DNA of 64,000 bases from positions 32,001-96,000 of the forward strand of contig JAVZLS010000001.1 of NCBI GenBank assembly GCA_038883715.1, read 5' to 3'. Position numbers and translations under genes: made by a program. Shown in pieces: positions 7,442-64,000 of the stretch (position 1 is the first letter of the stretch; each line of letters begins with the position of its first letter). The notes under the pieces are model-generated. The model searched no databases. It was not told where the DNA came from and saw nothing but the letters and a program-made list of their open reading frames with translations. The DNA is from Candidatus Bathyarchaeia archaeon (GTDB lineage: Archaea > Thermoproteota > Bathyarchaeia > Bathyarchaeales > Bathycorpusculaceae).

Positions 7442-8803
7442 TTGCGGTTTTCTCAAAGGCTTGTAGATAGGTGTTCGCCAAACGTTTGGCTATTTGATGT
7501 TCTAAGGGATTCAGGTGTGGCTGCGGATGTAAGTTATAATGGAAGTCAGGTTGTTGTTAAGGCTTCTAGAAGCGGTTTATGTGTTGCTTGTAAGGGTTCA
7601 CGTTTTCTCTGCGGAAAGACTCGTTGTCCAATAATTGTTAGGGCTAACTACTTCTTGAAAAGTGTTCCGTTGATGCAAAGTGAGGATATTGCTGGGGCTT
7701 CTCCTCCAAGTGTTTTTGTTGGTAGGATTGGCTATCCATATGTTTACGCTGGACCCCTTGTTCCGCCTGTGCAAGAGGACACAAGCCTTTATGACCTGCC
7801 GGAATACTGGTTTGGAAAATCTATCGACGAAATTGTTGGTTTCCGCTCTATGCTCATTCGTGGTAAGCATCGTGTTCATGTGCAGAAGTTTTTGGAAGCT
7901 GGAAAAATTATTGAGAAAACCAGGGAGCTTGCCTTAGCTGTTAAACCCGTTGATGTCGAGCTTCTTTTGAAGAAAAAACCTAGAGGCTTCATAGTTTTGG
8001 ACGATGAAGTTCAGCCTTTTGGTCCTTCTGCGCCCATACGCGACTTAAGGGTTGGATATGCCCGGTGGGATCATCAAATTGAGAAAGCCTATTATGATAC
8101 GGATTTGAAGGCTGCGGAGGCGGTTTTAGAGCTTTACAACAAAGGTGTTTTGGTAACGAAGATTCAAAGAGCTTTTAGCGTTGGCGCCTTTGGTATGGAA
8201 AAGAATAGGCGTCTTGTGCCAACCCGCTGGAGTATAACAGCCGTTGACAGCATAATCTCAAAGGAGCTTATGGAAAAAGTGAAGACTTTTCCAGAAATAA
8301 GCGAATATCGCGTTTACGAGTCTCGCTATTTGGACAACATTTTTGAAGTTTTAATGATTCCGGGCAAGTGGAGCTATGAAGCCATAGAGGCTTGGTATCC
8401 GGGCACCGTTTGGAACCCCCATGGAAGAAGTGTTATAATGTTTTCCGACTGGGAAGGCTATGAGGGGCGAACAACATATGCTGAAATTGGTGGATGCTAC
8501 TACGCGGCGCGTTTGGCTGTCTGCGAACAACTCGTTAGGGAGCAGCGCCAAGCAACGGTCATAGTGCTTCGGGAGGCTCATCCTGGCTACATAATGCCGG
8601 TCGGCGTCTGGCAAGTTCGTGAAAACGTTAGGAATGCCATGCGCCAGAAACCCTACACTTTCAAAACTTTAGATGAGGCCCTAAAGTTTATTGCAAGCCG
8701 CTTTAAGATTCCTATTCGCCAGTGGATTATGCGCAGCGAACTTTTAAAGGATGCCCTTTTCCAGAAAAGGATAACGGATTTCTTGGAAAAAGTTAAAGGC
8801 TGA
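7442..8803 (+). CDS. nreA: Nre family DNA repair protein
   Basis: CxxC...CG...CP zinc site, SPPSVFVG, RRLVPTRWSITAVD, C-terminal PIP box QKRITDFL. Confidence 0.88.
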   Translation: MRFSQRLVDRCSPNVWLFDVLRDSGVAADVSYNGSQVVVKASRSGLCVACKGSRFLCGKTRCPIIVRANYFLKSVPLMQSEDIAGASPPSVFVGRIGYPYVYAGPLVPPVQEDTSLYDLPEYWFGKSIDEIVGFRSMLIRGKHRVHVQKFLEAGKIIEKTRELALAVKPVDVELLLKKKPRGFIVLDDEVQPFGPSAPIRDLRVGYARWDHQIEKAYYDTDLKAAEAVLELYNKGVLVTKIQRAFSVGAFGMEKNRRLVPTRWSITAVDSIISKELMEKVKTFPEISEYRVYESRYLDNIFEVLMIPGKWSYEAIEAWYPGTVWNPHGRSVIMFSDWEGYEGRTTYAEIGGCYYAARLAVCEQLVREQRQATVIVLREAHPGYIMPVGVWQVRENVRNAMRQKPYTFKTLDEALKFIASRFKIPIRQWIMRSELLKDALFQKRITDFLEKVKG

Positions 8804-8814
8804 CGGTTAAAGCC

Positions 8815-9420
8815 ATGTCGAGGATAAGAAAGTTTTTGGCAACATTATATCACGCCTTTTTCAACTTTGTACTCAACTCGTTTAAGAGCATCAACCGAAA
8901 GATTAGGTCGAAGCTTCCAGTTTGGCGCATGAAAGAGGAAACAAGAGAGCACGTCCAGTCATCCATAAAGGTTTTCAAGTGGATAATCTTGCCTGCAAGC
9001 CTCCTCTACGTTTTCCTAGAGTTCTACTTTTTCGGCGAAAATGCCCTGGACACAATGCTCTGGGGGTTGGCGGTTTTCTTTTACAGCAACTTCCTACCAG
9101 ACTTACCGTCCATATACAGAAGAAAAGCCAAAAACAATGGTGGGAAAGATCTTTCATGGTATAAACGCTACGCCATACTTTTATTCGCGCCATTGCTTGT
9201 TTGGATTTTGTTTTCGGGTATACGACTAAACTGGAGAACCACGGAAACCTACCATAACTTCAAATCTTTAACAGTTTACTGCGTTTTCCTCTTTTTTGTT
9301 GGCTTTTTCGCCTTCGTGAAATTTCCCGTACAAACTGGGAATTTTATTAAAATTCTTGTCTTTCCGCTTTATGGTTTAGCTGGATATCTGACGCATTTAA
9401 AAGTGGATAAAATCTGGTGA
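8815..9420 (+). CDS. Membrane protein, YdjM-like metal-dependent hydrolase motifs
   Basis: Multiple TMs; LPDL...H...GYLTHLxxD pattern. Confidence 0.5.
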   Translation: MSRIRKFLATLYHAFFNFVLNSFKSINRKIRSKLPVWRMKEETREHVQSSIKVFKWIILPASLLYVFLEFYFFGENALDTMLWGLAVFFYSNFLPDLPSIYRRKAKNNGGKDLSWYKRYAILLFAPLLVWILFSGIRLNWRTTETYHNFKSLTVYCVFLFFVGFFAFVKFPVQTGNFIKILVFPLYGLAGYLTHLKVDKIW

Positions 9421-9503
9421 GGTATTAGACAATGGTTGCTAAAACTTCCCAAACTATGCTGCTTTACGGAGAAAATAATTTATAAACGCTGACGTAGTTA
9501 GTT

Positions 9504-10472
9504 TTGGTTTTCCAGAGTTTACATTTGGTGCATTTAATGGTAGAGATAATCATTCAAGCTTTGGCGCTGTTTGCCTCTTTGGCTGTCTTAGCGACAGCCA
9601 GCTTTTTCGCCATAAAACATATTGAAGATTTTATGGAAATCATCCGTCTAAGCGAAGTTGCAGCTGGATTTGTGATCTTGGCGATTATGACTTGTATGCC
9701 TGAAATAACTGTAGCGGTTTTTTCAGTGCAACATGGCACAGCAGGAATCAGCATAGGCGACATTTTAGGTTCACATCTCTTTAACATTGGTGTAGTGGTC
9801 GGGTTATTAGCAACGTTCGGTTCTTTAAAAAAATGCAGGACAGAAGCGCTGGTAGAACTTATTGATTTACTTTTTCTCGCTTCTATCATACCTTTACTTC
9901 TCGTTGCATTCAAGGCAGCCAGTTCCATTATCGGTGTTCTATTAATAGTCATTTTTGTTCTAAGTTTTTATAGGATGAGCAGAAAGCGGCGACCTCCCAC
10001 TTTCGACCATATTAAAGATAGACGCGTGGAAAGGAAAAAACCACTTATAATCCTCATTACAATCCTCATTACAGTTGCTATTGTTGTGTTGTCCGCTAGA
10101 ACCACCATCACATCAGCTATTGAAATTATTAAATTAGTGGGCATCTCTCAGCCCGAAATCGGTGCCAAGATAGTGGCAGTGGGCACATCTCTCCCTGAAC
10201 TTGCTTTTGGGCTGGTAGCTCTCAAAAGAGGAAGAGTACACCTTGCTTTGGGCGACGCCATTGGCGCAAACCTTACAACTATAACCTTAGTCTTGGGCAT
10301 AGTTTTACTTTTCGCGCCGTTTGCAATCGAACAGCTAATGTTCACTGAAATTCTCATATTCGTGCTCATAATGAACCTCATTTTATGGAGGTACTTGACA
10401 AAGGGAGGAGTAACACAACTTGGCGGAATAATCCTCATAACGGTCTACATAGTGTTTCAAGCAATTTTCTAG
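9504..10472 (+). CDS. Na+/Ca2+ exchanger (CaCA family)
   Basis: Two alpha-repeats: TCMPE...GDILGS and GTSLPE...GDAIGAN. Confidence 0.9.
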   Translation: MVFQSLHLVHLMVEIIIQALALFASLAVLATASFFAIKHIEDFMEIIRLSEVAAGFVILAIMTCMPEITVAVFSVQHGTAGISIGDILGSHLFNIGVVVGLLATFGSLKKCRTEALVELIDLLFLASIIPLLLVAFKAASSIIGVLLIVIFVLSFYRMSRKRRPPTFDHIKDRRVERKKPLIILITILITVAIVVLSARTTITSAIEIIKLVGISQPEIGAKIVAVGTSLPELAFGLVALKRGRVHLALGDAIGANLTTITLVLGIVLLFAPFAIEQLMFTEILIFVLIMNLILWRYLTKGGVTQLGGIILITVYIVFQAIF

Positions 10473-10556
10473 TTGTTGGTAGGTTAAAATAAACATGCAT
10501 ATTTTAGAGCAAAGATTTTAAGGCAAATTATTAAACTAAGTGAAAGGTTTCATAAA

Positions 10557-11786
10557 ATGCTTGACCCGGTAACACTTGCGTTGGCTTTGGCTGGCTCAAT
10601 AATTGTGATAGGATTTTTAGGCAACTACTTCTTTGAGCGCACCGGTTTCCCTGACATGATTTTCCTTATAATTTTGGGCATGCTGGTTGGACCCGTAACA
10701 AAATTGGTGGACACCGAGCAGTTCATAATGCCGCTGGCTCCATACTTCGCTGCCCTAGCCTTAGTCTTCATATTATTCGACGGTGGAATGGCTATGAATA
10801 TTTACCGCGTTTTCACCGAAAGCCCTAGAGCCACTGTGTTGGCTGTTGGGGGTTTTGGTTTAAGTGTTGCAGCCACAACATTGTTTGCGGCTTTGTTGTT
10901 GATGCCGGACAAACCAGTAACATACTCGTTATTGTTAGGAACCATTCTCGGAGGAAGCAGCAGCATAGTCGTGATTTCACTTGCATCAAAGATAGGGGTT
11001 AGCGAAAAATGCTCAACAATACTCAGCCTCGAATCGGCGCTGACGGACATTTTATGCATTGTTTTCTCATTAACAATTATTGAGATAATTCTGGGAAGCG
11101 CCGTTGAACCTATATCTATTGGGCAGGCGATTGCAAGCAAATTCTCGATAGGAATTGTGCTTGGAATATTTTTCGGACTTTTATGGCTAAGTGTACTAAA
11201 AAAGATTGTGAAGGCGCCATACGCTTACATTCTCACACTAGCTGTTGTGCTACTATCCTATGCTGTTTCAGAAACCCTAGGCGGCAGCGGAGCACTATGC
11301 TGCCTACTTTTCGGTATAGTGTTAGGGAATGAAAAGGAGATTTACAGAATGCTTCGAATGGAAAGGCCAACGGAAACTGTTATTGATGCTGGGCTGAAAA
11401 GGTTTGAGTCTGAAGTGGCATTTCTACTGAGAACATTCTTTTTTGTTTACATAGGCTTAATATCAACAATAAGCGACGTAAAAATAGCCCTTCTAGGCAT
11501 AATCCTCTCCTTCATACTATTACTAGCCAGATTTGGCGCCGTGCGATTAGCAACAGCCCGCTGCAGCGAACTCGCCGAAGAACGTCCAATAATGAGTGTA
11601 ATTCTAACAAGGGGTTTGGCGGCCGCCGTATTAGCAACATTGCCTTTGCAGTATTCTGAAGCGAACCCCACTTTTAAAGAGCTGTATAAAATCTACATCA
11701 ACATAGTTGTTTTGGTGATTCTTGTAACGGCGGTAATTGCCACAATAGGCATACCAATAATAAAATGGAGAGCCAAGAAGGGATAG
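10557..11786 (+). CDS. Cation:proton antiporter (CPA1/NhaP-like)
   Basis: ILFDGG, LESALTD, RGLAAAVLA; about 12 TMs. Confidence 0.9.
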   Translation: MLDPVTLALALAGSIIVIGFLGNYFFERTGFPDMIFLIILGMLVGPVTKLVDTEQFIMPLAPYFAALALVFILFDGGMAMNIYRVFTESPRATVLAVGGFGLSVAATTLFAALLLMPDKPVTYSLLLGTILGGSSSIVVISLASKIGVSEKCSTILSLESALTDILCIVFSLTIIEIILGSAVEPISIGQAIASKFSIGIVLGIFFGLLWLSVLKKIVKAPYAYILTLAVVLLSYAVSETLGGSGALCCLLFGIVLGNEKEIYRMLRMERPTETVIDAGLKRFESEVAFLLRTFFFVYIGLISTISDVKIALLGIILSFILLLARFGAVRLATARCSELAEERPIMSVILTRGLAAAVLATLPLQYSEANPTFKELYKIYINIVVLVILVTAVIATIGIPIIKWRAKKG

Positions 11787-51787: not shown

Positions 51788-51892
51788 GGGCCCGTAGCTC
51801 AGTAAGGTAGAGCGGCGGACCAAACCGCTGCGCGGGGTGGGTTGAGGCTCTTAACCCGTAGGTCCCGGGTTCAATTCCCGGCGGGCCCGCCA
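51788..51892 (+). tRNA. tRNA-Lys(CTT) with 28-nt intron at 30/31 (51819-51846)
   Basis: GGGCCCG/CGGGCCC acceptor stem; removing ACCAAACCGCTGCGCGGGGTGGGTTGAG gives GCGGG-CT-CTT-AA-CCCGT; encoded CCA. Confidence 0.92.
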
Positions 51893-52947: not shown

Positions 52948-54258
52948 TTATTTCAGTTTCTTTAATGCCTCTCTCGCTTTTTCAACCGTGTAATGGATGT
53001 CGTTCTCTGTGTGGGCAGCTGAAATGTGGCATCTCTTGTTGGGTTTCGGCAGGATAAAGACTCCACTTTTCATCATTTCCCTTTGAAACTTCATGAAAAG
53101 CTCATTATTAGAGAATGTGTCCCTATAATTGGTGATTTGCTTCTTCGTAAATACTATTTGGAAGATGGACCCAAAGCCCACAACTTGGGCTTCAATTTTT
53201 AATTGGTCAATGATTTCGTTGAGTTCATTTCTAATTTCCTCTCCAAGCTTAAAGAGATGCTTGTGCGCCTCATTCCTCTCCAACTCTTCTATCGTTGCAA
53301 GGGTGGCAGCCATGGATACGGGATTGCTGTTGAAGGTGCCTCCATAGTCAACATTACCCGTAGGCCTAAAATATTCCATGATTTCTTTTCTTCCACAGAC
53401 TGCCGCCACGGGGAATCCATTTGCCATGGCTTTGGCGAATGTTGTTAGGTCTGGCGTGACGTTGAAGATTTTTTGGGCTCCGCCCAAGTGATGACGAAAG
53501 CCGGTAACCACCTCGTCAAAGATTAATACGATTCCATATTCTTCGGTGATTTCTCTCAAAAATTTTAGGAAACCCTCCTTTGGAGGAATGCAGGTGGCGC
53601 TGCCGTGGAGAATCGGCTCAGTTATTAGTGCTGCTATCTCATCGTGGTGCCTCCTTATTGTTTTTTCCACAATTTCTTGGTCATTAAAGGGGACGACAAT
53701 TACCTGCTTTGCCGTTTCTGGGGGGATGCCTGCCGTGTCTGGAACGGGATTTGGGTGTTCTACTGGTCCTGCCTCTTTTAATGTTGGGTTTGTACTGAAA
53801 GATACTGTGTCGTGCCATCCGTGGTAGGCGCCTTCAAATTTTACAATTTTGCTTCTGCCGGTGTAAGCCCTTGCTAAACGTATGGCGTGGTAAGTGGCTT
53901 CCGTTCCCGTATTACAAAATCTGATCATTTGGGCTGAAGGAACATGAGCTGCAATTTTCTTGGCAACTTCAACCTCCAACTCGTTACAGAGACCATAAAT
54001 CACGCCTTTATCCAACTGCCTTTTAACGGCGGCTGAAACCCTTGGATGGGCGTGTCCCAAGATTACGGGTCCAAAAGCCAGATGATAATCTATGTACTGG
54101 TTGCCGTCCGCATCCCAAATCTTTGAGCCCTTCGCCATTGATATGAAAAGGGGGTAAGGTTCAAAATACCGTAGTGCGCTGTGGACGCCTCCTGGTGTAA
54201 GCTTTTTCGCTTCTTCAAAAAGCTCTTTTGACCTTTCTGTCCCTTTCATGCTTATCAT
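52948..54258 (-). CDS. Class III PLP aminotransferase, HemL/Kat-like
   Basis: PGGVHS, GPVILGH, TGTEAT, FEGAYHG, FDEVVTGFR, AKAMANG, GGTFNSNP. Confidence 0.88.
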   Translation of the reverse strand: MISMKGTERSKELFEEAKKLTPGGVHSALRYFEPYPLFISMAKGSKIWDADGNQYIDYHLAFGPVILGHAHPRVSAAVKRQLDKGVIYGLCNELEVEVAKKIAAHVPSAQMIRFCNTGTEATYHAIRLARAYTGRSKIVKFEGAYHGWHDTVSFSTNPTLKEAGPVEHPNPVPDTAGIPPETAKQVIVVPFNDQEIVEKTIRRHHDEIAALITEPILHGSATCIPPKEGFLKFLREITEEYGIVLIFDEVVTGFRHHLGGAQKIFNVTPDLTTFAKAMANGFPVAAVCGRKEIMEYFRPTGNVDYGGTFNSNPVSMAATLATIEELERNEAHKHLFKLGEEIRNELNEIIDQLKIEAQVVGFGSIFQIVFTKKQITNYRDTFSNNELFMKFQREMMKSGVFILPKPNKRCHISAAHTENDIHYTVEKAREALKKLK

Positions 54259-54259
54259 C

Positions 54260-55096
54260 TCAAGTTTTTTGGGGGAGTCCGAGGAGTTTTCTAGCCTCGC
54301 TGGGGGTGGCTATTTCTATGCCCAGCTCCTTTGCTATTCTAACAACCTTAGCCACTAATTCGGCATTGCTTTTGGCTAGGACGCCCTTGGCGAGGTAGAT
54401 GTTGTCTTCCATTCCAACTCGGACGTCTCCTCCCAAAATCATTCCAAGCGTTAGAAGTTTAAATTGAACTTTGCCACCGACGGCTATGACGTTCCACCTA
54501 CAGTTTTGCGGTAAAGCCTTTACCATATGCATGAGGTTTTCCGGCGTAGCCGGAATCCCGCCTTTAACTCCTAAAACTAGTCCAAACCTAAGGGGTTCTT
54601 TTAATAACCCTTTTTCAAACAATTGAAGTGCCAGGTTTATGTGTCCAACATCATAGCATTCAATTTCTGGTTTTATGTTTCTCTCAAGCATTATTTTGGC
54701 AATTTTCTCCACAACATCTGGAGGGTTTAAGAATACGCTGTTGCCGAAGGTCATTGTGGCCACATTCAGCGATGCAAATTCAGGATTTAGCTCAAGGGCG
54801 CACATCCTTTGCTCCAAAGAAATTCCATAAGGTCCACCGCCTCCTGTGGTAAGTTGAATAATCATGTCACATTTTTCCCTGATTCTCTCAATAACCTCGC
54901 GGTACAAATTAACGTCCGGGTATGGCTCCTTGGTTTTTGGGTTTCTAACGTGTATATGGGCGACTGCTGCTCCAGCTTCATAGGCTTTCACAGCTTCTTC
55001 GGCTATTTGCTCTGGGGTTATTGGCAGATAAGGAGTCTCCTTCCACATTGGACCTGAACCCGTTGGAGCCACAGTTATTATCATTATATTCTTCAC
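54260..55096 (-). CDS. Beta-keto acid cleavage enzyme (BKACE/Kce, DUF849)
   Basis: ITVAPTG, P.TPEQIA, AHIHVR, PEIECYD.GH, RVGMEDN. Confidence 0.92.
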   Translation of the reverse strand: MKNIMIITVAPTGSGPMWKETPYLPITPEQIAEEAVKAYEAGAAVAHIHVRNPKTKEPYPDVNLYREVIERIREKCDMIIQLTTGGGGPYGISLEQRMCALELNPEFASLNVATMTFGNSVFLNPPDVVEKIAKIMLERNIKPEIECYDVGHINLALQLFEKGLLKEPLRFGLVLGVKGGIPATPENLMHMVKALPQNCRWNVIAVGGKVQFKLLTLGMILGGDVRVGMEDNIYLAKGVLAKSNAELVAKVVRIAKELGIEIATPSEARKLLGLPQKT

Positions 55097-55244
55097 AACA
55101 TTACTCTCTATCCATTAAATGCCATAAATTTTGTCTTTTGTTTTATAAATTACACTTTTAGGCGATTCTAAAATTGAACTTTAGTTTTAATTAAATAACA
55201 AAGCTTAAAAAGAAATCGATACGTAACTGAAAAAGGGGAAGGCT

Positions 55245-56837
55245 TTGGCCGAAGTTAAGTTTGCCTTTCCAAGAAAGGCGACCGGGCTTGTCAGAGAGCT
55301 TGGTTGGTGGTCAGCGTTCTCCGTTTCCCTCAGCTACACCATTGGCAGCGGAATAAACTATTGGTCTGTGCAGGCTGCGTATTGGCATCCAGGCTCGATA
55401 ATCCCACTTGCATATATTATTGGCGCTTTACCAGCGATTTTCTTGGCCTACGTAATTACAGAAATGGGAATAATGATGCCGAGGTCCGGTGGAAGCTACA
55501 TATACGTATCAAGGGTTTTAGATCCCCATGTAGGCTTTCTAGGAGACTGGTTATACTTCGTAGCCAACAACTTCGCCACCGGAGTATTAGCAGTTATTGG
55601 CGCTGGATTCTGGGTTAAAATGATCAACCTGCTGGGCTACGCCACCAAAAATCCTGACTGGATTGTCTTCACGCTAGACAATGTGGGGTTAGGCATAATA
55701 GCCGTAGTAATTGTTACGATTTATACGCTGTTGTCATTGCTAGGCATAAGAGTGTTTAGATGGTACGTAGCGGGACTAGTTGCCATAGGCATAGTGGGAA
55801 GCTTTCTCGGGGTTGCCGCCACCTTCTATGGAATTATGAATCCAGCCTACGTAAAAGAAGCTTGGAACCTAACCTATGGTCCAGGCTCGTGGGAACAAGT
55901 GCGACAAGTAGCCATAGACAATGGTTGGGCTGATTATGTTGCAAGCGCCACCCAGAAGGCTGGAGGCACTGGAGGAGCGACCATACTAAACTTTGTGGAT
56001 ACTTTCTGGGCGTACTGGGGAACAACAGCGGCATGCTACTTTGGCGGAGAAATGAAATCTCCAAAGACAGGCTTCATAGTGGGCGTTTTTGCCGCCACAC
56101 TATTCGTAATGTTCTGGTATGTCTTAACCGTCATCGGCGTATATACAGCCTACGGAGACTTTGTCAGCCAATACTGTTACGTCTATGGAGAAGGATACGC
56201 GGATCAGGTGACAGCGATGACTATGTTAGATCCAAGCCTACCACTATTCACAGTGCCACTGGCGCATGGGCAGGTTTGGCTTCAAGCAATATTTGCCTTT
56301 ATCCCAGCCATGTGGATTTCCAACTGCTCCGGGGCAACTCTACTTGTGGGTCCAAGGCAACCTTTCGCATGGGCCTTCGACAGATTCTTTCCAGAAGCCT
56401 TCAACCGCGTGAATGAGCGTTTCCACTCACCACACTGGGCAATCATATTGACTGCAATAATTGCCTACTTGTTCATACCATTAAGCCTCGGCAACGTTTT
56501 CGTGGCAACCGTGGATGCAACATTCATCTTCATCCTCAGCCAACTCCTCATAGCCTTTGCAGGTGTAATATTACCCTATAGACGCCCGGACATCTGGGAA
56601 AGAGGGTTTAAGGCCACCTTTGCAGGCATACCAGTAATAAGCTTATGTGGCGCCTTAGCAATCTTCTTCTGGACTTGGGGATTAGCAGTAGCTGCATCTT
56701 GGCTAACCGCTTGGGGAATGGCCTACTTGGCCTTATGGGTTTTCGTTGGCTCCCTCATATGGTTTGCTTATGCAGAGCGCAACAGAAGGATAGGCATAGC
56801 ACTACAAGACATATATGGTGAAATACCGCCAGCGTAA
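55245..56837 (+). CDS. APC family amino acid/amine permease
   Basis: RKATGLVRE, MPRSGGSYIYVSR, GGEMK; 12+ TMs; C-terminal EIPP. Confidence 0.9.
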   Translation: MAEVKFAFPRKATGLVRELGWWSAFSVSLSYTIGSGINYWSVQAAYWHPGSIIPLAYIIGALPAIFLAYVITEMGIMMPRSGGSYIYVSRVLDPHVGFLGDWLYFVANNFATGVLAVIGAGFWVKMINLLGYATKNPDWIVFTLDNVGLGIIAVVIVTIYTLLSLLGIRVFRWYVAGLVAIGIVGSFLGVAATFYGIMNPAYVKEAWNLTYGPGSWEQVRQVAIDNGWADYVASATQKAGGTGGATILNFVDTFWAYWGTTAACYFGGEMKSPKTGFIVGVFAATLFVMFWYVLTVIGVYTAYGDFVSQYCYVYGEGYADQVTAMTMLDPSLPLFTVPLAHGQVWLQAIFAFIPAMWISNCSGATLLVGPRQPFAWAFDRFFPEAFNRVNERFHSPHWAIILTAIIAYLFIPLSLGNVFVATVDATFIFILSQLLIAFAGVILPYRRPDIWERGFKATFAGIPVISLCGALAIFFWTWGLAVAASWLTAWGMAYLALWVFVGSLIWFAYAERNRRIGIALQDIYGEIPPA

Positions 56838-56844
56838 ACGTTAG

Positions 56845-57561
56845 TTACCCACCTTTTTCTTTAATTTTAGTGTCAACTATTGCAAGGTAATACCCGTGCA
56901 AAATTCCAGGTTTTTTAATCACCCTTATCCCTTCATAATCAGTCCTCTGCAGCTTAATCTTATAATCTTCTGGTTTCAACCCATACTTCTCAATGGTTGA
57001 CTTTAACTTGTCAATGTAATGTTGAACAGCCTCCTTCAACCTTCTCTTTGTAGCTTCCTCCTCCTTGACACCGCCTTCCTCGGCAATTTTTTTAAGCTCA
57101 TATTTTGTTAAACTCAACATAAGCAAGGTTACATCCGCTAAAATAAAAAGCAAAATTATGCTTGGGAAAGACAAGAAAGTCCAGTACATCCACATAAAAC
57201 TGGAAGGAAGAATTACACCCCTCTGCCATAAAATAGCCAAAACAACAACAATCATGAAATAGATTAATGTGACAAAATTTAGAATTTTGTTTACCCTTAT
57301 CATTTTCCTAAGCTTGCCAGACTGCCCTATCCTCTTCAAAACTTTTTGGGTTTCTTTACTAAAGTATTTCAAATACGCCGAGTCTAAACTGACCGTTTTG
57401 GTTTTCGCCAACAACTCTTTTGGATCGTGAACTGAAGCGCTTCTTAAACCATCAAAGTAGCTAATTACAGAAACCAGCTCACTCGATATTTTCTGAGCCT
57501 TCTTCACATCCTCCTCAGTCCATTTCACTCTATCCGACCCCAAACCTTGCACTAACAACAT
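56845..57561 (-). CDS. Hypothetical 2-TM protein
   Basis: Central TM hairpin flanked by soluble N- and C-terminal domains. Confidence 0.7.
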   Translation of the reverse strand: MLLVQGLGSDRVKWTEEDVKKAQKISSELVSVISYFDGLRSASVHDPKELLAKTKTVSLDSAYLKYFSKETQKVLKRIGQSGKLRKMIRVNKILNFVTLIYFMIVVVLAILWQRGVILPSSFMWMYWTFLSFPSIILLFILADVTLLMLSLTKYELKKIAEEGGVKEEEATKRRLKEAVQHYIDKLKSTIEKYGLKPEDYKIKLQRTDYEGIRVIKKPGILHGYYLAIVDTKIKEKGG

Positions 57562-57605
57562 TAGTACAAATGTCTAGGATAAGATTATTAAGACTTAGTT
57601 GGAGT

Positions 57606-58397
57606 TTATAACCTAACTTCTTTATACCACTTTTTCTTTGTTCCAACCTGCGCTCTCTTCAACCAATCCTTGGTTTTGGGCTCCTCATCAATATATTTCA
57701 AGATTTGGTCGATCTTTGAGGTCACATCGGCAATATCTTCTGCAGTGAGTTGCTGGTACATGGGGCAGGCAGCCCTAACCTTTTTCAAGTTGGTTGTAGC
57801 CGTGTACCAGAATCCCCAATCGTTTGCAAACAACTTAGCCATGTATTTGGCATTAATTGTTTCCGGCGCGTCGGTATCGCCAATTTTGTGGTCTCTCAGG
57901 AGGACTATGACGTCTTTGGCGTCTTTCTCTGTGAATTCAACTATTTCCAGTTTGGTTAGCAGCAAGTCGACTAATGAGGCTGTTGGATAGTCTAGGTGGA
58001 ACCTATTTCGGAAATCTACCTTGTGGCATAGATCTAACGCGTCATAGAAAATGTCAATGTCAACTCTCCCTCTGTAAACCTGACGATTCCTCGTTCCAAC
58101 ACCACTTGTGAAGAAAAAGATGTAGGAGTCAAACTTCCAACCCCTCGACTCAAAGAACTTTCTAATTTTCGCCCTCTCTTTATCCGGAGCAACAAAATCT
58201 ATATCTGGAAACTCTTGCCCCTCAATTCTTTTCAGCCTTTTATGAAGGTCGATTGCCATGGGGGATGAGTGAATCCTAATGGCTGGGCCTCCTATCAACC
58301 TTAGCGTGAGTCCTTCCCTTTTGGCTTCCTCCACAAGGTCTATGGCTATTTTTACAATTTCCTCAGATGGCACTTGTTTCTTTTCCTTCTCCTCCAT
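57606..58397 (-). CDS. Putative nucleotidyltransferase (pol-beta superfamily)
   Basis: LIGG.A...H, DIDF, DIDIF, LLLTKL, K D..D. Confidence 0.7.
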   Translation of the reverse strand: MEEKEKKQVPSEEIVKIAIDLVEEAKREGLTLRLIGGPAIRIHSSPMAIDLHKRLKRIEGQEFPDIDFVAPDKERAKIRKFFESRGWKFDSYIFFFTSGVGTRNRQVYRGRVDIDIFYDALDLCHKVDFRNRFHLDYPTASLVDLLLTKLEIVEFTEKDAKDVIVLLRDHKIGDTDAPETINAKYMAKLFANDWGFWYTATTNLKKVRAACPMYQQLTAEDIADVTSKIDQILKYIDEEPKTKDWLKRAQVGTKKKWYKEVRL

Positions 58398-58400
58398 TAA

Positions 58401-59360
58401 TCATCCCTCCACCTTCCACCATTTCTCAATACCATCTTTAGTGAGGTCGATGATGAAGCCTCTAAGAACTCCCTCACTATATTCTGAACCGGGGTTTATG
58501 GCTAAGGTTTTTCCTATGTAATCTGAAGCGTAGGATTCGTGAATATGGCCGTGCAAACTTAAGAGGGGCTGATTCTCCTCAATGAATCTTCGTATGGCTT
58601 TGCTGCCTACATTATCATAAATTATTCTTCCTAGGAAGACAACGGGCTTCAGGTTCTTATCCAGTTTTGGAGCCAAATCCAGTTTGGTGCAATATGGTGG
58701 ACAGTGGAAATTTAGGATAACTTTCCTCCAGTCGCCGGAGAACAGATTCTTTATCCTTTCTAGCTTTTTCCATAACTCCTCTTCTGGAGCCTCTCGAGGC
58801 GTGTCCCATGGTGTGGGGTTAACCCATTCAAAACTTAGCATTTCATAGTCTAGGCATATGTTGACAACCTTTTCCAGCGGGTATATAACACGGTCCTTGT
58901 GGGCCTTTATCAATTCGTCAATTTCAAATGAGTCGTCATTTCCAGGCATCATAACAACGGTGACGTCTTTGGGCAGTTTTTCATCAATCATGTCAAGCCA
59001 TCTTTGAAGTCTCTCTTTCATGTAACCGCGGAATAATTCGTCAACCCTTTTTGGATTCTTCATAAGCTCGTCATACTCATCTTGGCTGCAAACATGAGTG
59101 TAAAATCCGCTGAAAGTAATCTTATCAATTAGCTTTTTTAGTTCGTCTTGGCCGCTGGCGTTTATCCATCGCCCATAAACCATGGTCTTGTATCGGCCGG
59201 GGTTTTCCTCAATTATTGGTATTATGAGTTTTCCAGTTAAATCTCCACACAACAATAGAACATTTGCCTTATACACTTTGGGGATTGAGAGCCACTTTCG
59301 CCAAACCATTTCGCTTCCGTGTATGTCTACGGCATGAAAGAGTCTAACTTTTTCAGCCAT
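58401..59360 (-). CDS. Calcineurin-like metallophosphoesterase (Icc-related)
   Basis: DIHGS, GDLTGK, PGNDD, H.PP, HGHIHE, NPGS. Confidence 0.88.
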   Translation of the reverse strand: MAEKVRLFHAVDIHGSEMVWRKWLSIPKVYKANVLLLCGDLTGKLIIPIIEENPGRYKTMVYGRWINASGQDELKKLIDKITFSGFYTHVCSQDEYDELMKNPKRVDELFRGYMKERLQRWLDMIDEKLPKDVTVVMMPGNDDSFEIDELIKAHKDRVIYPLEKVVNICLDYEMLSFEWVNPTPWDTPREAPEEELWKKLERIKNLFSGDWRKVILNFHCPPYCTKLDLAPKLDKNLKPVVFLGRIIYDNVGSKAIRRFIEENQPLLSLHGHIHESYASDYIGKTLAINPGSEYSEGVLRGFIIDLTKDGIEKWWKVEG

Positions 59361-59481
59361 TGCAAGACCTAGGAAATGCTTTACCCTTATCTTATATTTA
59401 CCTTACTCTTTTTAAAGCAACATCAAGGGTTCACTCTGAAAATTTTATATGCAAATACATGCAATTTGATTTGATACCCTG

Positions 59482-60141
59482 GTGGAATCTATGAAAGAAG
59501 AAATCCTAAATAAACTGATGAACGCGGTCCTAAGCTATGACCCGGAAGCGGCTGTTAAAGCTGCGGAAGAAGTCCTCCAAAAAGGCGTAGACCCCGTTGA
59601 GGCTATTGAAGAAGGTTTAGCTAAAGGGGTAAGAATTGTCGGAGAGCGGTTCGGCGCTGGAGAAGCCTTTTTAACAGAGCTTGTAATAGCCGCGGAAGCC
59701 ATGAAACAGGCCCTAAAAGTTCTCGAACCTGCAATTCTAAAAAGCGCTAGGGAAAAGAAAACTTTGGGCAAGGTTCTCATAGGCACGGTAGAAGGAGACA
59801 TCCACGACATTGGAAAGAACATTGTAAGCACGCTTCTCATGGTGGCCGGCTTTGAAGTTATAGACATAGGAGTTGACGTCCCAACCGAAAAGTTTGTGGA
59901 GAAAGTTAAGGAGGTTAAACCAGACATAGTTGGAATGTCCGCCCTAATGACCACTACAATGGCTAAGATGGCGGAGGTTATAGAAGCCCTTAAATGTGAA
60001 GGTCTACGCGAAAAAGTTAAAGTGATAATAGGCGGGGCTCCCACATCCAAGAAATGGGCCGAAGAAATAGGCGCCGACGGCCATGGCGGAGATGCCATAG
60101 AGGCTGTTGAAATAGCAAAGAAGCTGGTAAAAGCCGCATAG
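59482..60141 (+). CDS. Methyltransferase cognate corrinoid protein (MttC/MtbC-like)
   Basis: Cap domain + GDIHDIGKNIV B12-binding motif, SALMTTT, IGGAP. Confidence 0.93.
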   Translation: MESMKEEILNKLMNAVLSYDPEAAVKAAEEVLQKGVDPVEAIEEGLAKGVRIVGERFGAGEAFLTELVIAAEAMKQALKVLEPAILKSAREKKTLGKVLIGTVEGDIHDIGKNIVSTLLMVAGFEVIDIGVDVPTEKFVEKVKEVKPDIVGMSALMTTTMAKMAEVIEALKCEGLREKVKVIIGGAPTSKKWAEEIGADGHGGDAIEAVEIAKKLVKAA

Positions 60142-60186
60142 CCCCAGAGGCTGCTCAGCCACGTTTTGAGGGTGTGGGCCCTAAAA

Positions 60187-61644
60187 ATGGTTTTTCTTAG
60201 AGAAAATCAGAGGGTAAAATTCTCCGTCCTTTCCAGAGAAGATTTAGAAAAGATTCACAAAGCCACCCTAGAAGTTTTAGAGACAACAGGGCTTAGAATC
60301 ACCAGCCAAAAATGCCTCAGAATTCTTGAGGAAGGAGGCTGCAAGGTTGACTATAAAAGGCAGATGGCATTCATCCCTTATTATTTGGTTGAAGAAGCAT
60401 TGAGGAAAAATCAGAAGAGTATAACCCTCTGTGCCAGAAATCCAAAATATGATGTAGTTTTGGATGAAAATCATGTATATATAACTACCGACGGGAATGG
60501 AACCCAAACCATTGACATGGAAACTGGGGAAAGGCGGACTTCAACAAAGGATGATATAGCCAAATCAGCCATAATTTCAGACGCCATTGACGTGGTGGAC
60601 ATATATTGGCCCATGGTAAGTGCCCAAGACTATCCAGCCCACGTTCGACATCTCCACGATCTTGAGGCTTCTTTAGCTAACACGGAAAAACATGTAACCT
60701 TCGAAACAACCATGTCGCCTAAAGAAGCTAGATATCAGATAGAAATTGCAGCGGCAGTTCTCGGAGACGAAGAGAAGCTAAGGAAGAGGCCCATAATCTC
60801 TTCCCTACACTGCACAAGCGCACCACTCCAAATGGATGGAAACAGCATGGAAGCCGCCCTAGAATTTTCTAAAGCTGGCATTCCAGTGATGTTTTTTGGA
60901 ATGCCCCAGCCAGGAGCCACGGGTCCTGTAACGCTTGCCGGTTCTTTGGTTGTGAATAATGCTGAAGTTTTGGGCTGTCTCACTCTAACTCAATTGGTTT
61001 GTCCAAGGGCTCCTGTCATTTATGGCGCTGGCATAGCGGCGTTCGATATGAAAACCTTAAAACGAGCTGGGGGAGGCCCGGAACACGGTTTAACCGGCGC
61101 CGCTGCCGGTGAGCTAGCAAGGTATTATGGTATGCCCTCTATTGTGGGAGGTTTTGTTTCAACGGCAAAGACTCCGGGAGCCCAAGCATGTTATGAAAAG
61201 TTTGCAAGCGGGTTTCCACCAGTTTTCTCCGGGTGCAGCATGATCGCCGGGATAGGATTGCTTGATGACTGCACAACCCTAGCCTTTGAAGAGATTCTAA
61301 TAGACGCTGAAATTGTGAAGATAGTTTTCCGAATAGCCCAGGGAATAGAGGTTAACGACAACACATTAGCACTTGATATTATCCGCAAAGTTGGTCCAGG
61401 CGGCAATTTCCTAGCCGAGAGACACACCCTTCAAAACTTGCGAAGGGAACATTTCATCCCCGAATTAACCGACAGGCGATCCTTCGAAGCGTGGATCAAG
61501 GATGGCGGGAAAGACCTGGTGAGGATAGCCAAGGAAAAGGTTAAGGTAATCCTTCAAACACACCAAGTTCAACCCTTAGAAAAGGATGTGCAAAAGGAAA
61601 TCAAACGTATCATTGAAAGGGCTGAAAAGGATTTAGCTACCTAA
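60187..61644 (+). CDS. Non-pyrrolysine MttB-superfamily methyltransferase 1
   Basis: IH.ATL.VLE..G, GATGPVTLAGSL...NAE.L, VGPGGNFL..RHT; no internal TAG; start set at ATG 60187. Confidence 0.92.
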   Translation: MVFLRENQRVKFSVLSREDLEKIHKATLEVLETTGLRITSQKCLRILEEGGCKVDYKRQMAFIPYYLVEEALRKNQKSITLCARNPKYDVVLDENHVYITTDGNGTQTIDMETGERRTSTKDDIAKSAIISDAIDVVDIYWPMVSAQDYPAHVRHLHDLEASLANTEKHVTFETTMSPKEARYQIEIAAAVLGDEEKLRKRPIISSLHCTSAPLQMDGNSMEAALEFSKAGIPVMFFGMPQPGATGPVTLAGSLVVNNAEVLGCLTLTQLVCPRAPVIYGAGIAAFDMKTLKRAGGGPEHGLTGAAAGELARYYGMPSIVGGFVSTAKTPGAQACYEKFASGFPPVFSGCSMIAGIGLLDDCTTLAFEEILIDAEIVKIVFRIAQGIEVNDNTLALDIIRKVGPGGNFLAERHTLQNLRREHFIPELTDRRSFEAWIKDGGKDLVRIAKEKVKVILQTHQVQPLEKDVQKEIKRIIERAEKDLAT

Positions 61645-61694
61645 AAAGCTTATTAAAAACTTTGTTTGTTAAACGTTTCAAAAGGAGGAAAATT

Positions 61695-63137
61695 ATGCCT
61701 AAATCCTCTCTTCCAAAATTTCAGCCGTTATCAGAGGATGAAATCGAGTCAATTCACCTTGCTTCTCTTAGACTCCTAGAAGAGGTTGGCGTGAAAATAT
61801 ACAGCGAAAACGCATTAAAATTATTAAGCGGCAACGGAGCTGAGGTGGACTTTGATAAGAAAATTGCCTACATCCCGCAACATTTGGTTAAGGAAGCTCT
61901 CAATAAGGCGCCTTCCACCATCAAACTTTATGGTAGAATTAGGAGGCACGACAGAGTTTTAGAAGGAGACACAGTCACATTTAATCCTGGATCATCAGCC
62001 CTATACATTCTGGATTATGAGACTGGTGAAATTAGGAGACCAGTTTCGAAGGATTTGGAGAATCTTGTTAGACTTGCCGACGCTCTTGAACATATTCAGG
62101 CGCAAAGTACAGCCATGGTTGTTTCGGATGTCCCTCAGTCAATAGTGGACCGTTACCGCCTCTACATAGTTCTAAAAAATTCTTCAAAGCCAATAATAAC
62201 CGGAGCCTTCAGCATCGATGGACTTTATGACATGAAAAGAATGCTTGAAATTGTGGCTGGCGGCGAGAAAGAATTAGCCAAAAAGCCCATGGCAATATTT
62301 GATGTCTGTCCCTCTTCACCGTTAAAATGGAGCGAAATCGACGTACAAAACCTAGTAGATTGCGCCAAATTCCGTTTACCTGTTAATATTATTCCAGCAA
62401 TCCAGTTAGGTGCCACTGGTCCCGCAACGATAGCTGGCTCCCTTGTTCAACACAACGCCGAAGTTTTAAGCGGCTTGGTGATGGTTCAGCTAGTAAATCC
62501 GGGTTCCCCGGTGATTTATGGCGGTTCACCAACGGTTTTCGATCAGAGGTGTGCTACGGCTTGTCTAGGGGCTGTGGAAGCTATGCTTCTGGGTTGTGCC
62601 TACATCCAAATTGCAAAGAGCTATCGATTGCCAACTCACATGTATATTGGACTTAGTGATGCGAAGGTGATAGATGCACAATGCGGTTTTGAAACTGGAA
62701 TAGGCTTAGTATTAGGAGCGTTGGCTGGAATAAACGTGATATCCGGACCGGGAATGTTAAACTTTGAAAATTGCCAAAGTTTAGAAAAACTTGTTATAGA
62801 CAACGAAATTTGCGGCATGGCACTTAGGCTAGCAAAGGGTGTAAAGGTTGAAGATGAAACAATAGCCTTCGACCTTATTAAAAAGGTGGGGCCCGGCGGA
62901 ACATACTTGGCAGAAAGGCACACTCTGGAATGGATTAGAAAAGAGCAGTTCGTACCATCAGAAATCATTGATCGCAAAGAATGGAAGGCTTGGAGAGACG
63001 CTGGGAAAAAAGACGTAGTGAAACGAGCTCACGAAATTGTCGAGAAAAAACTGAAAGAGCATGTGCCTGAGCCGTTACCCAAAGATGTCCAAGAAAACCT
63101 TGACAATTTTGCAAAAGACCTATTGAAAAGATGCTGA
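61695..63137 (+). CDS. Non-pyrrolysine MttB-superfamily methyltransferase 2
   Basis: SSPL, GATGPATIAGSL..HNAE.L, SDAK..D.Q.G.E, VGPGG.YL..RHT; AGGAGG before ATG 61695. Confidence 0.92.
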   Translation: MPKSSLPKFQPLSEDEIESIHLASLRLLEEVGVKIYSENALKLLSGNGAEVDFDKKIAYIPQHLVKEALNKAPSTIKLYGRIRRHDRVLEGDTVTFNPGSSALYILDYETGEIRRPVSKDLENLVRLADALEHIQAQSTAMVVSDVPQSIVDRYRLYIVLKNSSKPIITGAFSIDGLYDMKRMLEIVAGGEKELAKKPMAIFDVCPSSPLKWSEIDVQNLVDCAKFRLPVNIIPAIQLGATGPATIAGSLVQHNAEVLSGLVMVQLVNPGSPVIYGGSPTVFDQRCATACLGAVEAMLLGCAYIQIAKSYRLPTHMYIGLSDAKVIDAQCGFETGIGLVLGALAGINVISGPGMLNFENCQSLEKLVIDNEICGMALRLAKGVKVEDETIAFDLIKKVGPGGTYLAERHTLEWIRKEQFVPSEIIDRKEWKAWRDAGKKDVVKRAHEIVEKKLKEHVPEPLPKDVQENLDNFAKDLLKRC

Positions 63138-63218
63138 AAGAATGGCATACCGCCCTAACTTTTTATGAAAATTTAAATAGATTCCCAACGGTAAGACAGA
63201 TTCCAAGGAGGATTCAAG

Positions 63219-64000
63219 ATGTTCAAGTTTGAAAAGGAGCAGAAAATTTTTGACATTGCAAACGTGAAGGTTGGAGGGCAACCAGGTCAACTTCCAACGG
63301 TGCTCATTGGAAGCATATTTTACCATAAGCACAAGATCGTAAAGGACGAACGGAAAGGCGAGTTCGACAAGGAGAAAGCCGAAGAAGCACTGAAAAAGGA
63401 GGAGGAAATATCCAATAGAACTGGAAATCCGAGAATTGTGGATGTTTGCTGTTCATGGCCAGAAGCCTTTGAAAAATTCATAGAGTTTGTCGCAGACCAT
63501 ATTGATGGACCCTTTACGATTGATGGCGCCACAGCCGATGTTAGGATTGCCGGGGCAAAATATGTTGGGGAGGTAGGCTTATCCGAAAGGGTTGTTTACA
63601 ATTCCATAACACCCCATGTTAAAGAGGAAGAAATCACAGCCATTAGAGACGCCAAGATTAAATCTGCCATACTTTTAACACTTAACACCAAAAACCCCAC
63701 AATTTCCGGAAGGTTGCAGGTGCTCGACGAGTTATTAGCCACGGCTCAAAAGGCGGGAATAGAAAAGTTTTTGGTGGATACTACGGTTCTCGACTTGCCT
63801 GATCCTGGACCAGTTAGCAAGGCCATCTATCTAGTTAAGGAGAGGTATGGGTTGCCCGCTGGGGCTGGAACACATAACGCTGTTGACAGATGGAAAAGTA
63901 GGCGCAAGCTTGATGCAACAGAGTATATGCTTGCAACCAGTGTAGCCAACGTTTTCCCCATAATTGCCGGAGCCAACTTCATACTTTATGGACCCATTGA
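63219..64000 (+). CDS. mtrH: MtrH/MtgA-like methylcorrinoid:pterin methyltransferase (partial, runs off the window)
   Basis: Manual translation MFKFEKEQKIFDIANVKVGGQPGQLPTVLIGSIFY...YNSI...G.HNA...LYGPI, open to the window end; absent from the ORF track. Confidence 0.9.
   Translation, partial: MFKFEKEQKIFDIANVKVGGQPGQLPTVLIGSIFYHKHKIVKDERKGEFDKEKAEEALKKEEEISNRTGNPRIVDVCCSWPEAFEKFIEFVADHIDGPFTIDGATADVRIAGAKYVGEVGLSERVVYNSITPHVKEEEITAIRDAKIKSAILLTLNTKNPTISGRLQVLDELLATAQKAGIEKFLVDTTVLDLPDPGPVSKAIYLVKERYGLPAGAGTHNAVDRWKSRRKLDATEYMLATSVANVFPIIAGANFILYGPI

Follow-up and report, generated by a model that had tools for sequence, protein, structure and literature searches.

We propose a model for a block of catabolic genes at the end of a 64,000-nucleotide stretch of Bathyarchaeia DNA (the window, which is C1:32001-96000 of the host genome, G000) that most reasonably fits its gene content and the contexts of related genes. 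Three diverged members of the MttB superfamily of methyltransferases, all free of pyrrolysine (Pyl), two corrinoid proteins and one MtrH homologue together form what is, read from sequence, a well supported methyl-harvesting system feeding the tetrahydromethanopterin (H4MPT) Wood-Ljungdahl pathway. [quoted passage not shown] Its demethylation half is well supported and belongs to a known kind of system; its BKACE half is hypothetical.

Each Pyl-free MttB would take an N-methyl group from a methylated amine, a chemistry that we infer from homology and gene context, and the three enzymes may serve either three different substrates or successive methylation states, three in number, of a single substrate. 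Each methyl would pass to the Co(I) of corrinoid protein CoP1 or CoP2, and from there through the MtrH-type enzyme to H4MPT; methyl-H4MPT would then enter the archaeal Wood-Ljungdahl pathway, with the reductive activase supplied from elsewhere in the genome. The demethylated amino compound would be handled by pyridoxal-phosphate enzymes and a ureohydrolase, namely AT3, a class I aminotransferase, a ThrC-like and an agmatinase-like protein, relatives of which recur beside MttB in other Bathyarchaeia. BKACE, the weakest link, would act on the keto acid delivered by AT3, or just before AT3 as in the order of the lysine-fermentation enzymes Kce and Kat. The leading but unproven candidate for the substrate is an omega-N-methylated amino acid, for example N-epsilon-methylated lysine.

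The methyl-transfer core

59482..60141, + strand: corrinoid (B12-binding) protein CoP1; PF02310, PF02607; TIGR02370 228.8 against a cut-off of 215.3
60166..61644, + strand: MttB1; PF06253, E 2.8e-99
61662..63137, + strand: MttB2; PF06253, E 4.1e-102
63219..64000, + strand, cut by the window end: MtrH; PF02007, E 4.1e-85
Beyond the window: class I/II aminotransferase AT12, corrinoid protein CoP2, MttB3, a ThrC-like gene, an agmatinase-like gene

An earlier note on this DNA had taken the block for a candidate undescribed pathway of demethylation plus beta-keto-acid cleavage, listing BKACE, the aminotransferase, a permease, a corrinoid protein, two different non-Pyl MttB and MtrH; all of these are present, as intact open reading frames where it had placed them. 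The block is bigger than that first listing, with three further genes inside it (56845-59360) and about 5.8 kb beyond the window end, and inspection of the genes out there, which the note had advised, found that AT12, CoP2, MttB3 and the ThrC-like and agmatinase-like genes continue the cluster. CoP1, MttB1, MttB2 and MtrH are co-directional with intergenic gaps of 24, 17 and 81 nt, and the complete MtrH gene, of 301 aa, stops 124 bases beyond the window.

All three MttB proteins match the superfamily (PF06253, COG5598) over their full length (MttB3 at E 6e-93) and are 34-37% identical in pairs, with MttB1 and MttB2, the two non-Pyl enzymes of the note, at 34%. Their open reading frames are uninterrupted, without in-frame stop or UAG, and the pyrrolysine of M. 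barkeri MttB (residue 334) aligns with Val in MttB1 and with Leu in both MttB2 and MttB3, which excludes a Pyl-dependent trimethylamine methyltransferase identity. Despite having no UAG, MttB1 scores 534.6 against the cut-off of 525 for TIGR02369, and automatic annotation pipelines would for that reason mislabel it as a trimethylamine methyltransferase. Its best match in the PDB is M. barkeri MttB (300 bits, against 246 for MtgB), while MttB2 and MttB3 are equidistant from these two solved types. Glycine betaine is bound in MtgB by Y97, R312, H348 and F356 (PMC13080624), in whose place MttB1 carries Asn, Ile, a gap and Cys (hand-mapped alignment, chain offset 16); for three of these positions MttB2/MttB3 show Ser/Phe, His/Ala and Glu/Glu, hand-mapped without structural superposition. 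By this hand mapping the binding residues are kept in none of the three proteins, and an MtgB-type glycine betaine methyltransferase was rejected.

The partners of the MttB proteins are equally recognisable. CoP2 passes TIGR02370, as CoP1 does, with a score of 229.6, and full-length MtrH passes both TIGR01114 (283 against 271.4) and NF002142 (317.7 against 287). It falls far below the cut-off of the MtgA equivalog NF047990 (278.6 against 550), by which an identity as MtgA, the methyl-corrinoid:tetrahydrofolate methyltransferase, was rejected; the pterin in the proposed scheme would be H4MPT, a choice that is not readable from the protein itself.

The host genome is a Bathyarchaeia metagenome-assembled genome of 1.33 Mb in 41 contigs, 90.3% complete, to which all searches of the host below refer, and the public sequencing runs that contain the stretch carry the label hot-springs metagenomes. 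Its diphthine synthase is the mark of an archaeon, and the closest public loci all belong to Bathyarchaeia metagenome-assembled genomes with isolate names that we take for hot-spring sites. A search of the genome found no McrA; CdhC and Mch (methenyl-H4MPT cyclohydrolase) were found, and the host is a non-methanogenic hot-spring archaeon. Because Pyl-free MttB, corrinoid proteins and MtrH stand together with the H4MPT pathway and a RACo-type activase in this genome, corrinoid-dependent N-demethylation into methyl-H4MPT, the part of the earlier note concerned with the Wood-Ljungdahl pathway, is supported by the families present. The genome yielded no MttB beyond the three of the island and no BKACE beyond its single one. 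The one RACo lies away from the island on contig C14, within a second corrinoid system (L180:3986-17170) that also holds a branched-chain-type ABC importer, a URO-D-family methyltransferase, a third corrinoid protein, a ferredoxin and an AOR.

Gene order in the island is kept in ten related Bathyarchaeia loci as far as their contigs extend, with MttB1 identities of 71-98%. Some of these relatives carry extra cargo inside the block, namely a C69 peptidase, RACo, AOR, a proline-racemase-like gene and an OCD-like gene, all five of which are missing from the window. In four of them (L004-L007) RACo/RamA sits between MttB2 and MtrH (L005:13000-14892, corresponding to 63138-63218 in the window), which implies that the version in the window lost, or never gained, an activase at this place.

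BKACE, AT3 and the recurrent partners of MttB

52948..54258, - strand: HemL-like class III aminotransferase AT3; PF00202, E 1.9e-74
54260..55096, - strand: BKACE; PF05853, E 1.2e-101

A single nucleotide separates the BKACE stop codon from the AT3 start codon, and the two genes are translationally coupled in one operon, separate from the MttB genes. Whether this operon belongs with the methyl-transfer core was weighed against a census of another 40 MttB loci (stretches of at most 20 kb, 27 Bathyarchaeia genomes), chosen for flank on both sides, in which the following genes accompany MttB:

Corrinoid protein: 25/40
Any class III aminotransferase: 8/40
MtrH: 6/40
Lysine-dehydrogenase-like (LysDH-like) gene: 4/40
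Agmatinase-like (ureohydrolase) gene: 4/40
HemL-like aminotransferase, at least 47% identity: 3/40
RACo: 3/40

The recurrent partners of MttB are therefore HemL-like aminotransferases, LysDH-like enzymes and ureohydrolases rather than BKACE. The carriers of these partners are MttB2-type genes, whose orthologues (56-73% identity) adjoin LysDH-like, HemL-like and ureohydrolase genes. Outside the clade of the window, HemL-like aminotransferases stand next to MttB or corrinoid genes in two genome loci, L008 and L009, in the latter of which a LysDH-like gene is next to MttB2 and a ureohydrolase gene also adjoins MttB. Two further loci (L160 and L164, on G096:C17 and G070:C1, at about 7950-11430) hold a same-strand run of MttB, a LysDH-like gene and MtrH with no corrinoid gene inside the run. 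The LysDH-like partners lend some support to the suggestion of the earlier note that the substrate is a methyl-lysine, without fixing the substrate itself; its other suggestion, a carnitine-like compound, gained none, and the cluster has no dehydrogenase.

The association of BKACE with MttB has one independent counterpart. In G302, of the same family as the host and a different genus, an operon of BKACE and a saccharopine/lysine-dehydrogenase-like gene has as immediate neighbours MtrH, one corrinoid protein, two MttB, RACo and an amidohydrolase, with the LysDH-like gene adjoining MttB. The best PDB match of this LysDH-like protein is 3abi (PH1688; 231.8 bits), which we take to be an L-lysine 6-dehydrogenase, the PDB title being silent on it. 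The BKACE tree places the enzymes of G302 and of the window in separate, fully supported lineages, which argues that the adjacencies in the two genera arose independently, and in both cases the operon partner of BKACE, HemL-like in one and LysDH-like in the other, is an amine-removing enzyme of the kind that recurs beside MttB.

Several observations weigh against a common pathway, or against the model more widely. BKACE is present in none of the 40 census loci. In a metagenome scan that used an alignment of AT3 orthologues as query, BKACE is likewise in none of the 80 loci with relatives of the HemL-like aminotransferase, of which four hold MttB (L055, L056, L062, L114) and two the phosphoesterase/263-aa pair described below. 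BKACE was found in 104 and MttB in 109 of the 401 sampled Bathyarchaeia genomes; among the matches listed, compared by eye with at most three MttB scored per genome, only G000, G396 of the same genus and G302 have both within 10 kb of each other on a shared contig. The nearest BKACE relatives outside the genus (G289 and G281, of family f33, at 72-73% identity) have neither MttB nor aminotransferase beside them, their surroundings being unrelated genes; at five further BKACE loci of Bathyarchaeia the flanking genes are likewise unrelated and do not recur. The conserved order in the ten loci of close kin may be plain inherited synteny. No MttB-family enzyme in the account of PMC12155760 strips a second or third methyl: of the only six substrates it gives for the very large superfamily, each is demethylated by a system that takes off one methyl. 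Finally, the substrate of the MttB enzymes is not nameable from sequence: all three stand at the same distance from each solved member of the family, and the searches for KamA and KamD, which would supply a lysine-derived beta-amino acid, found neither. As to the co-occurrence that the note had asked to be checked, among the loci covered BKACE adjoins MttB only in the genus-level clade of the window and, as a different BKACE lineage, in one other genus.

The main rival to the model is a chance juxtaposition, in which BKACE and AT3, perhaps with the permease, form a self-contained beta-amino/beta-keto-acid module next to an independent MttB cluster; the module would be a Kat-like or an N-acetyl-beta-lysine-type route within a mosaic accessory island. 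A HemL-like Kat together with Kce is an established pair in clusters that have no MttB (PMC3149608), the contexts of BKACE in Bathyarchaeia are varied, the cargo inside the block differs among relatives, and a run of permease, phosphoesterase, nucleotidyltransferase and HemL-like genes occurs without MttB in L092 and L053. The island is also at another site in G375 and absent from G280. Against this, two unrelated BKACE lineages stand directly beside MttB and MtrH in two genera of a family in which few genomes have either gene (8 of 103 for BKACE, 5 of 103 for MttB), both operon partners of BKACE are themselves recurrent neighbours of MttB, the Kce-type Glu14 is missing from the BKACE of the window, and searches found neither KamA nor KamD. 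Among genomes of the genus, BKACE, MttB and the nucleotidyltransferase-fold gene are jointly absent from G280 (97% complete), and G391 and G396 hold all three; in G375 no BKACE was scored, but there the cluster reaches the contig end at the permease, which makes that miss uninformative. We consider the juxtaposition rather unlikely. That BKACE works in one pathway with the MttB enzymes, as the earlier note had assumed, is possible though on balance doubtful.

The identities of BKACE and AT3 bear on what such a pathway could be. Among NCBIfam models BKACE matches the Kce equivalog NF052387 best, with a score of 330.5 that stays below the cut-off of 382. Its motifs HIH (HxH) and MEDN (E) align intact with residues that we take to be the zinc ligands of Kce, and BKACE should by sequence be active because these ligands are intact. 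Kce binds the 5-amino group of its substrate through Glu14 (PMC10470551), a position held by Gly15, followed by Pro-Met-Trp, in the BKACE of the window and by Val in that of G302, whereas the BKACEs of Bathyarchaeia family f22 keep Glu. Given the missed cut-off, the change of Glu14 to Gly and the failure to find KamA and KamD in the host genome, Kce was rejected as the identity of BKACE.

A transaminase feeding a BKACE is chemically sound. In the classical Pseudomonas route an N6-acetyl-beta-lysine transaminase acts first, and 3-keto-6-acetamidohexanoate is then cleaved. An E. coli equipped with a beta-alanine transaminase and a BKACE converts beta-alanine to formyl-CoA and acetoacetate, and more than 20 of 124 BKACEs tested accepted malonate semialdehyde (PMC11961710). 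The most far-reaching form of our model would start with an omega-N-methylated amino acid, such as N-epsilon-trimethyl-lysine set free from methylated proteins, and strip it of all N-methyls, with one MttB per methyl level; the HemL-like transaminase, replaced in other lineages by a LysDH-like enzyme, would remove the freed amine, and a beta-keto acid arising from this would be split by a non-Kce BKACE to yield acetoacetate plus an acyl-CoA. We regard this complete route as improbable.

An order of the carnitine type would instead put BKACE first, acting on a quaternary beta-keto acid to give acetoacetate and a betaine acyl-CoA, with the betaine then serving as methyl donor for MttB. This is a known route in Ruegeria and Pseudomonas (PMC12478193, PMC12482172), and Gly followed by Pro-Met-Trp in place of Glu14 would give room for a bulky cationic group if the pocket is read correctly. 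The cluster, however, holds an aminotransferase and lacks a dehydrogenase that could produce a quaternary amine with a beta-keto group (Pfam scans, which covered the cluster genes alone, found none), and the betaine-binding residues of MtgB are kept in none of the three MttB, making this order quite improbable.

It is very unlikely that BKACE and AT3 serve as Kce and Kat in a full fermentation of lysine. Kat, a 3-aminobutyryl-CoA aminotransferase, is HemL-like and replaces Kal in the kce clusters of organisms without porphyrin synthesis (PMC3149608), and Kce is the nearest equivalog of BKACE; the score, the Glu14 position and the genome speak against it. Neither KamA (LAM_C) nor KamD (Lys-AminoMut_A) was found in the host genome, although the KamD search also found nothing in any control genome and is therefore weak; the variant fermentation (kamA, kamDE, kdd, kce, kat) was judged by these upstream aminomutases. 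The name Kat was given to none of the 120 best AT3 relatives listed (from 92% down to 50% identity), which leaves the question unsettled.

That AT3 is a genuine HemL, standing beside corrinoid enzymes because it serves B12 synthesis, can be dismissed as highly improbable: it passes the glutamate-1-semialdehyde (GSA) aminomutase subfamily model NF000818 (476 against 398) and has GSA aminomutases as best PDB matches, but it falls below the hemL equivalog (476.2 against 527.3), no ALAD/hemB was found in the host genome, and in the HemL tree the 23 of 78 AT3 relatives that pass the hemL cut-off form their own clade without MttB neighbours, apart from AT3, which falls in another clade, of 15 rows (support 95*), that includes members with MttB as neighbour. 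Automatic annotation misnames relatives of AT3 as HemL.

Remaining genes and setting of the island

55245..56837, + strand: APC-superfamily permease, divergently oriented relative to BKACE; PF13520, E 4.3e-25; about 9-10 hydrophobic segments
56845..57561, - strand: 238-aa protein with two predicted membrane helices (hydrophobicity scan)
57606..58397, - strand: 263-aa nucleotidyltransferase-fold protein (AlphaFold model and Foldseek)
58401..59360, - strand: metallophosphoesterase; PF00149, E 5.7e-7

Read from coordinates, the island consists of six transcription units of alternating direction: BKACE-AT3; the permease; the phosphoesterase with the 263-aa and 238-aa genes; CoP1-MttB1-MttB2-MtrH; MttB3-CoP2-AT12, which lie on one strand; and the ThrC-like/agmatinase-like pair, which is divergent with a 4-nt overlap. 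A comparison of the three divergent intergenic regions revealed no common regulator site, the shared words being only AT-rich and BRE/TATA-like, for example GAAAATTTT. Contigs from RNA libraries (two libraries of a single study, 90-97% alike) map on the permease, CoP1, MttB1, MttB2 and MtrH, and a 196-nt piece spans the BKACE/AT3 junction, the body of AT3 and most of BKACE being without cover; as contigs cannot prove transcripts, they are a weak hint of expression only.

The permease matched no specific NCBIfam equivalog. The 238-aa protein, without a match in Pfam, NCBIfam or PADLOC, is kept in close relatives. The 263-aa protein has no Pfam match, but its AlphaFold model (pLDDT 87.6) finds MenT1, ANT(2'')-Ia and LnuA as best Foldseek matches in the PDB (E 5e-4 to 5e-3, TM 0.3-0.57), so that it appears to resemble small-molecule and tRNA nucleotidyltransferases, at modest TM scores. 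Members of this family are found in 122 of 401 Bathyarchaeia genomes, many with at least six copies, and are expanded in families f33, f28 and f25 (at least six scored matches, up to 25 candidates per genome); the family could be toxin-like, of MenT type. Its usual neighbour is the phosphoesterase. The pair might, by analogy with the choline kinase MthK, tag and untag the substrate. A defence-system reading of the pair was set aside, since PADLOC gave only one weak generic phosphoesterase match and the ESM Atlas names are generic. The nucleotidyltransferase-fold gene is near MttB in 5 of the 40 census loci and in L131, with the phosphoesterase partner in L138 and L139; we claim no enrichment, as many such genomes hold at least six copies and chance adjacency is possible. 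A second set on another contig of the host genome (C34:2020-5410) has a permease, a phosphoesterase and a nucleotidyltransferase-fold gene at 28%, 47% and 36% identity to the island copies, and an AT3 paralogue (43% identity) is truncated by a contig end at C29:7798-8757 (L181 and L182, together with the C34 set); the C34 and C29 contig ends may adjoin.

A PepV-like M20 peptidase, frequently accompanied by a large amidohydrolase, is next to HemL-like aminotransferases and MttB in six loci (L050, L051, L055, L056, L130 and L159), two of which are from other genomes of the genus of the window.

To the left of the island are a response regulator, a small gene without assignment, a tRNA, diphthine synthase and pilus or archaellum genes, and to its right, after the agmatinase-like/ThrC-like pair, redox housekeeping genes. 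A clean island boundary is not readable in G280 or G375, where synteny ends right after dph5. The tRNA gene, between diphthine synthase and the island (51788-51889, + strand; Rfam RF00005, 53.5 bits), was overlooked by ARAGORN in bacterial mode and is presumably intron-bearing, because it measures 102 nt against the 71 positions of the Rfam model. No second copy of any 20-nt piece of it, allowing one mismatch, was found on contig C1 that would mark it as an integration site.

Relation to known systems and significance

The core of the island resembles the quaternary-amine systems of anaerobic bacteria, MtgB/MtgC/MtgA of Desulfitobacterium hafniense and MtpB, MtcB, MtyB and MthB with MtqC/MtqA of Eubacterium limosum, in that a Pyl-free MttB, a corrinoid protein, a pterin methyltransferase and a RACo/RamA activase are joined to a Wood-Ljungdahl outlet (PMC12155760). 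It differs from them in its archaeal host, in an MtrH-type outlet with H4MPT enzymes that does not reach the MtgA equivalog, in paralogues only 34-37% identical, none of them near a characterised member and none keeping the MtgB residues, and in neighbours that are amine-removing enzymes and BKACE.

Similar gene sets have been predicted in non-methanogenic archaea, where MttB/MtmB and MtrH cluster in Bathyarchaeia, Culexarchaeia and Asgard (PMC10321748, PMC8407382, PMC9723716); mttB is reported from seven orders of Bathyarchaeia and mtrH from hot-spring Bathyarchaeia (PMC10321748, PMC8407382). As MttB/MtrH clusters in Bathyarchaeia are thus published, the word undescribed in the earlier note was too strong. 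These archaeal clusters are annotated as trimethylamine methyltransferases, and the Pyl-free state, the aminotransferase, LysDH-like and ureohydrolase partners and BKACE are not discussed where the two papers on Bathyarchaeia treat the clusters (PMC10321748, PMC8407382).

The same word does not hold for the combination of chemistries either. In aerobic Alphaproteobacteria such as Ruegeria, carnitine is oxidised to dehydrocarnitine and converted by CdhABC/BKACE through betainyl-CoA to glycine betaine, which MtgB of the MtgBCD system demethylates (PMC12478193, PMC12482172), so that there is a precedent in which BKACE first cleaves an N-methylated compound and an MttB-family enzyme then demethylates the product. 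That route uses carnitine dehydrogenase and glycine betaine as methyl donor, whereas the island has an aminotransferase in the place of the dehydrogenase, MttB proteins without the betaine-binding residues, and an anaerobic, H4MPT-using host. In the pairing of BKACE with a HemL-like aminotransferase the island is also like the Kce and Kat of Candidatus Cloacimonas acidaminovorans, an organism without porphyrin synthesis (PMC3149608), but in the island the Kce cut-off is missed, the enzyme has no Glu14, searches of the genome found neither KamA nor KamD, and MttB systems flank the pair. A full-text literature search found no description of a combined MttB and BKACE cluster, the two being mentioned jointly only as separate subjects, in an introduction.

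Bathyarchaeia are among the most abundant archaea of sediments and hot springs. The recurring partners of MttB give testable hints to the substrates, which point to methylated lysine-, ornithine- or arginine-type compounds, and they suggest that the amino backbone is consumed and not excreted. If the backbone is consumed, the modelling of methylated-amine carbon and nitrogen flow in anoxic habitats would change. Known Pyl-free members of the MttB family each take a single methyl from a quaternary amine (PMC12155760); if the route that strips every methyl were true, its enzymes would be the first Pyl-free MttB-family members to act on tertiary or secondary amines. Furthermore, the island would then hold a natural transaminase and BKACE route, one that has so far only been engineered, from beta-alanine through malonate semialdehyde to formyl-CoA (PMC11961710).

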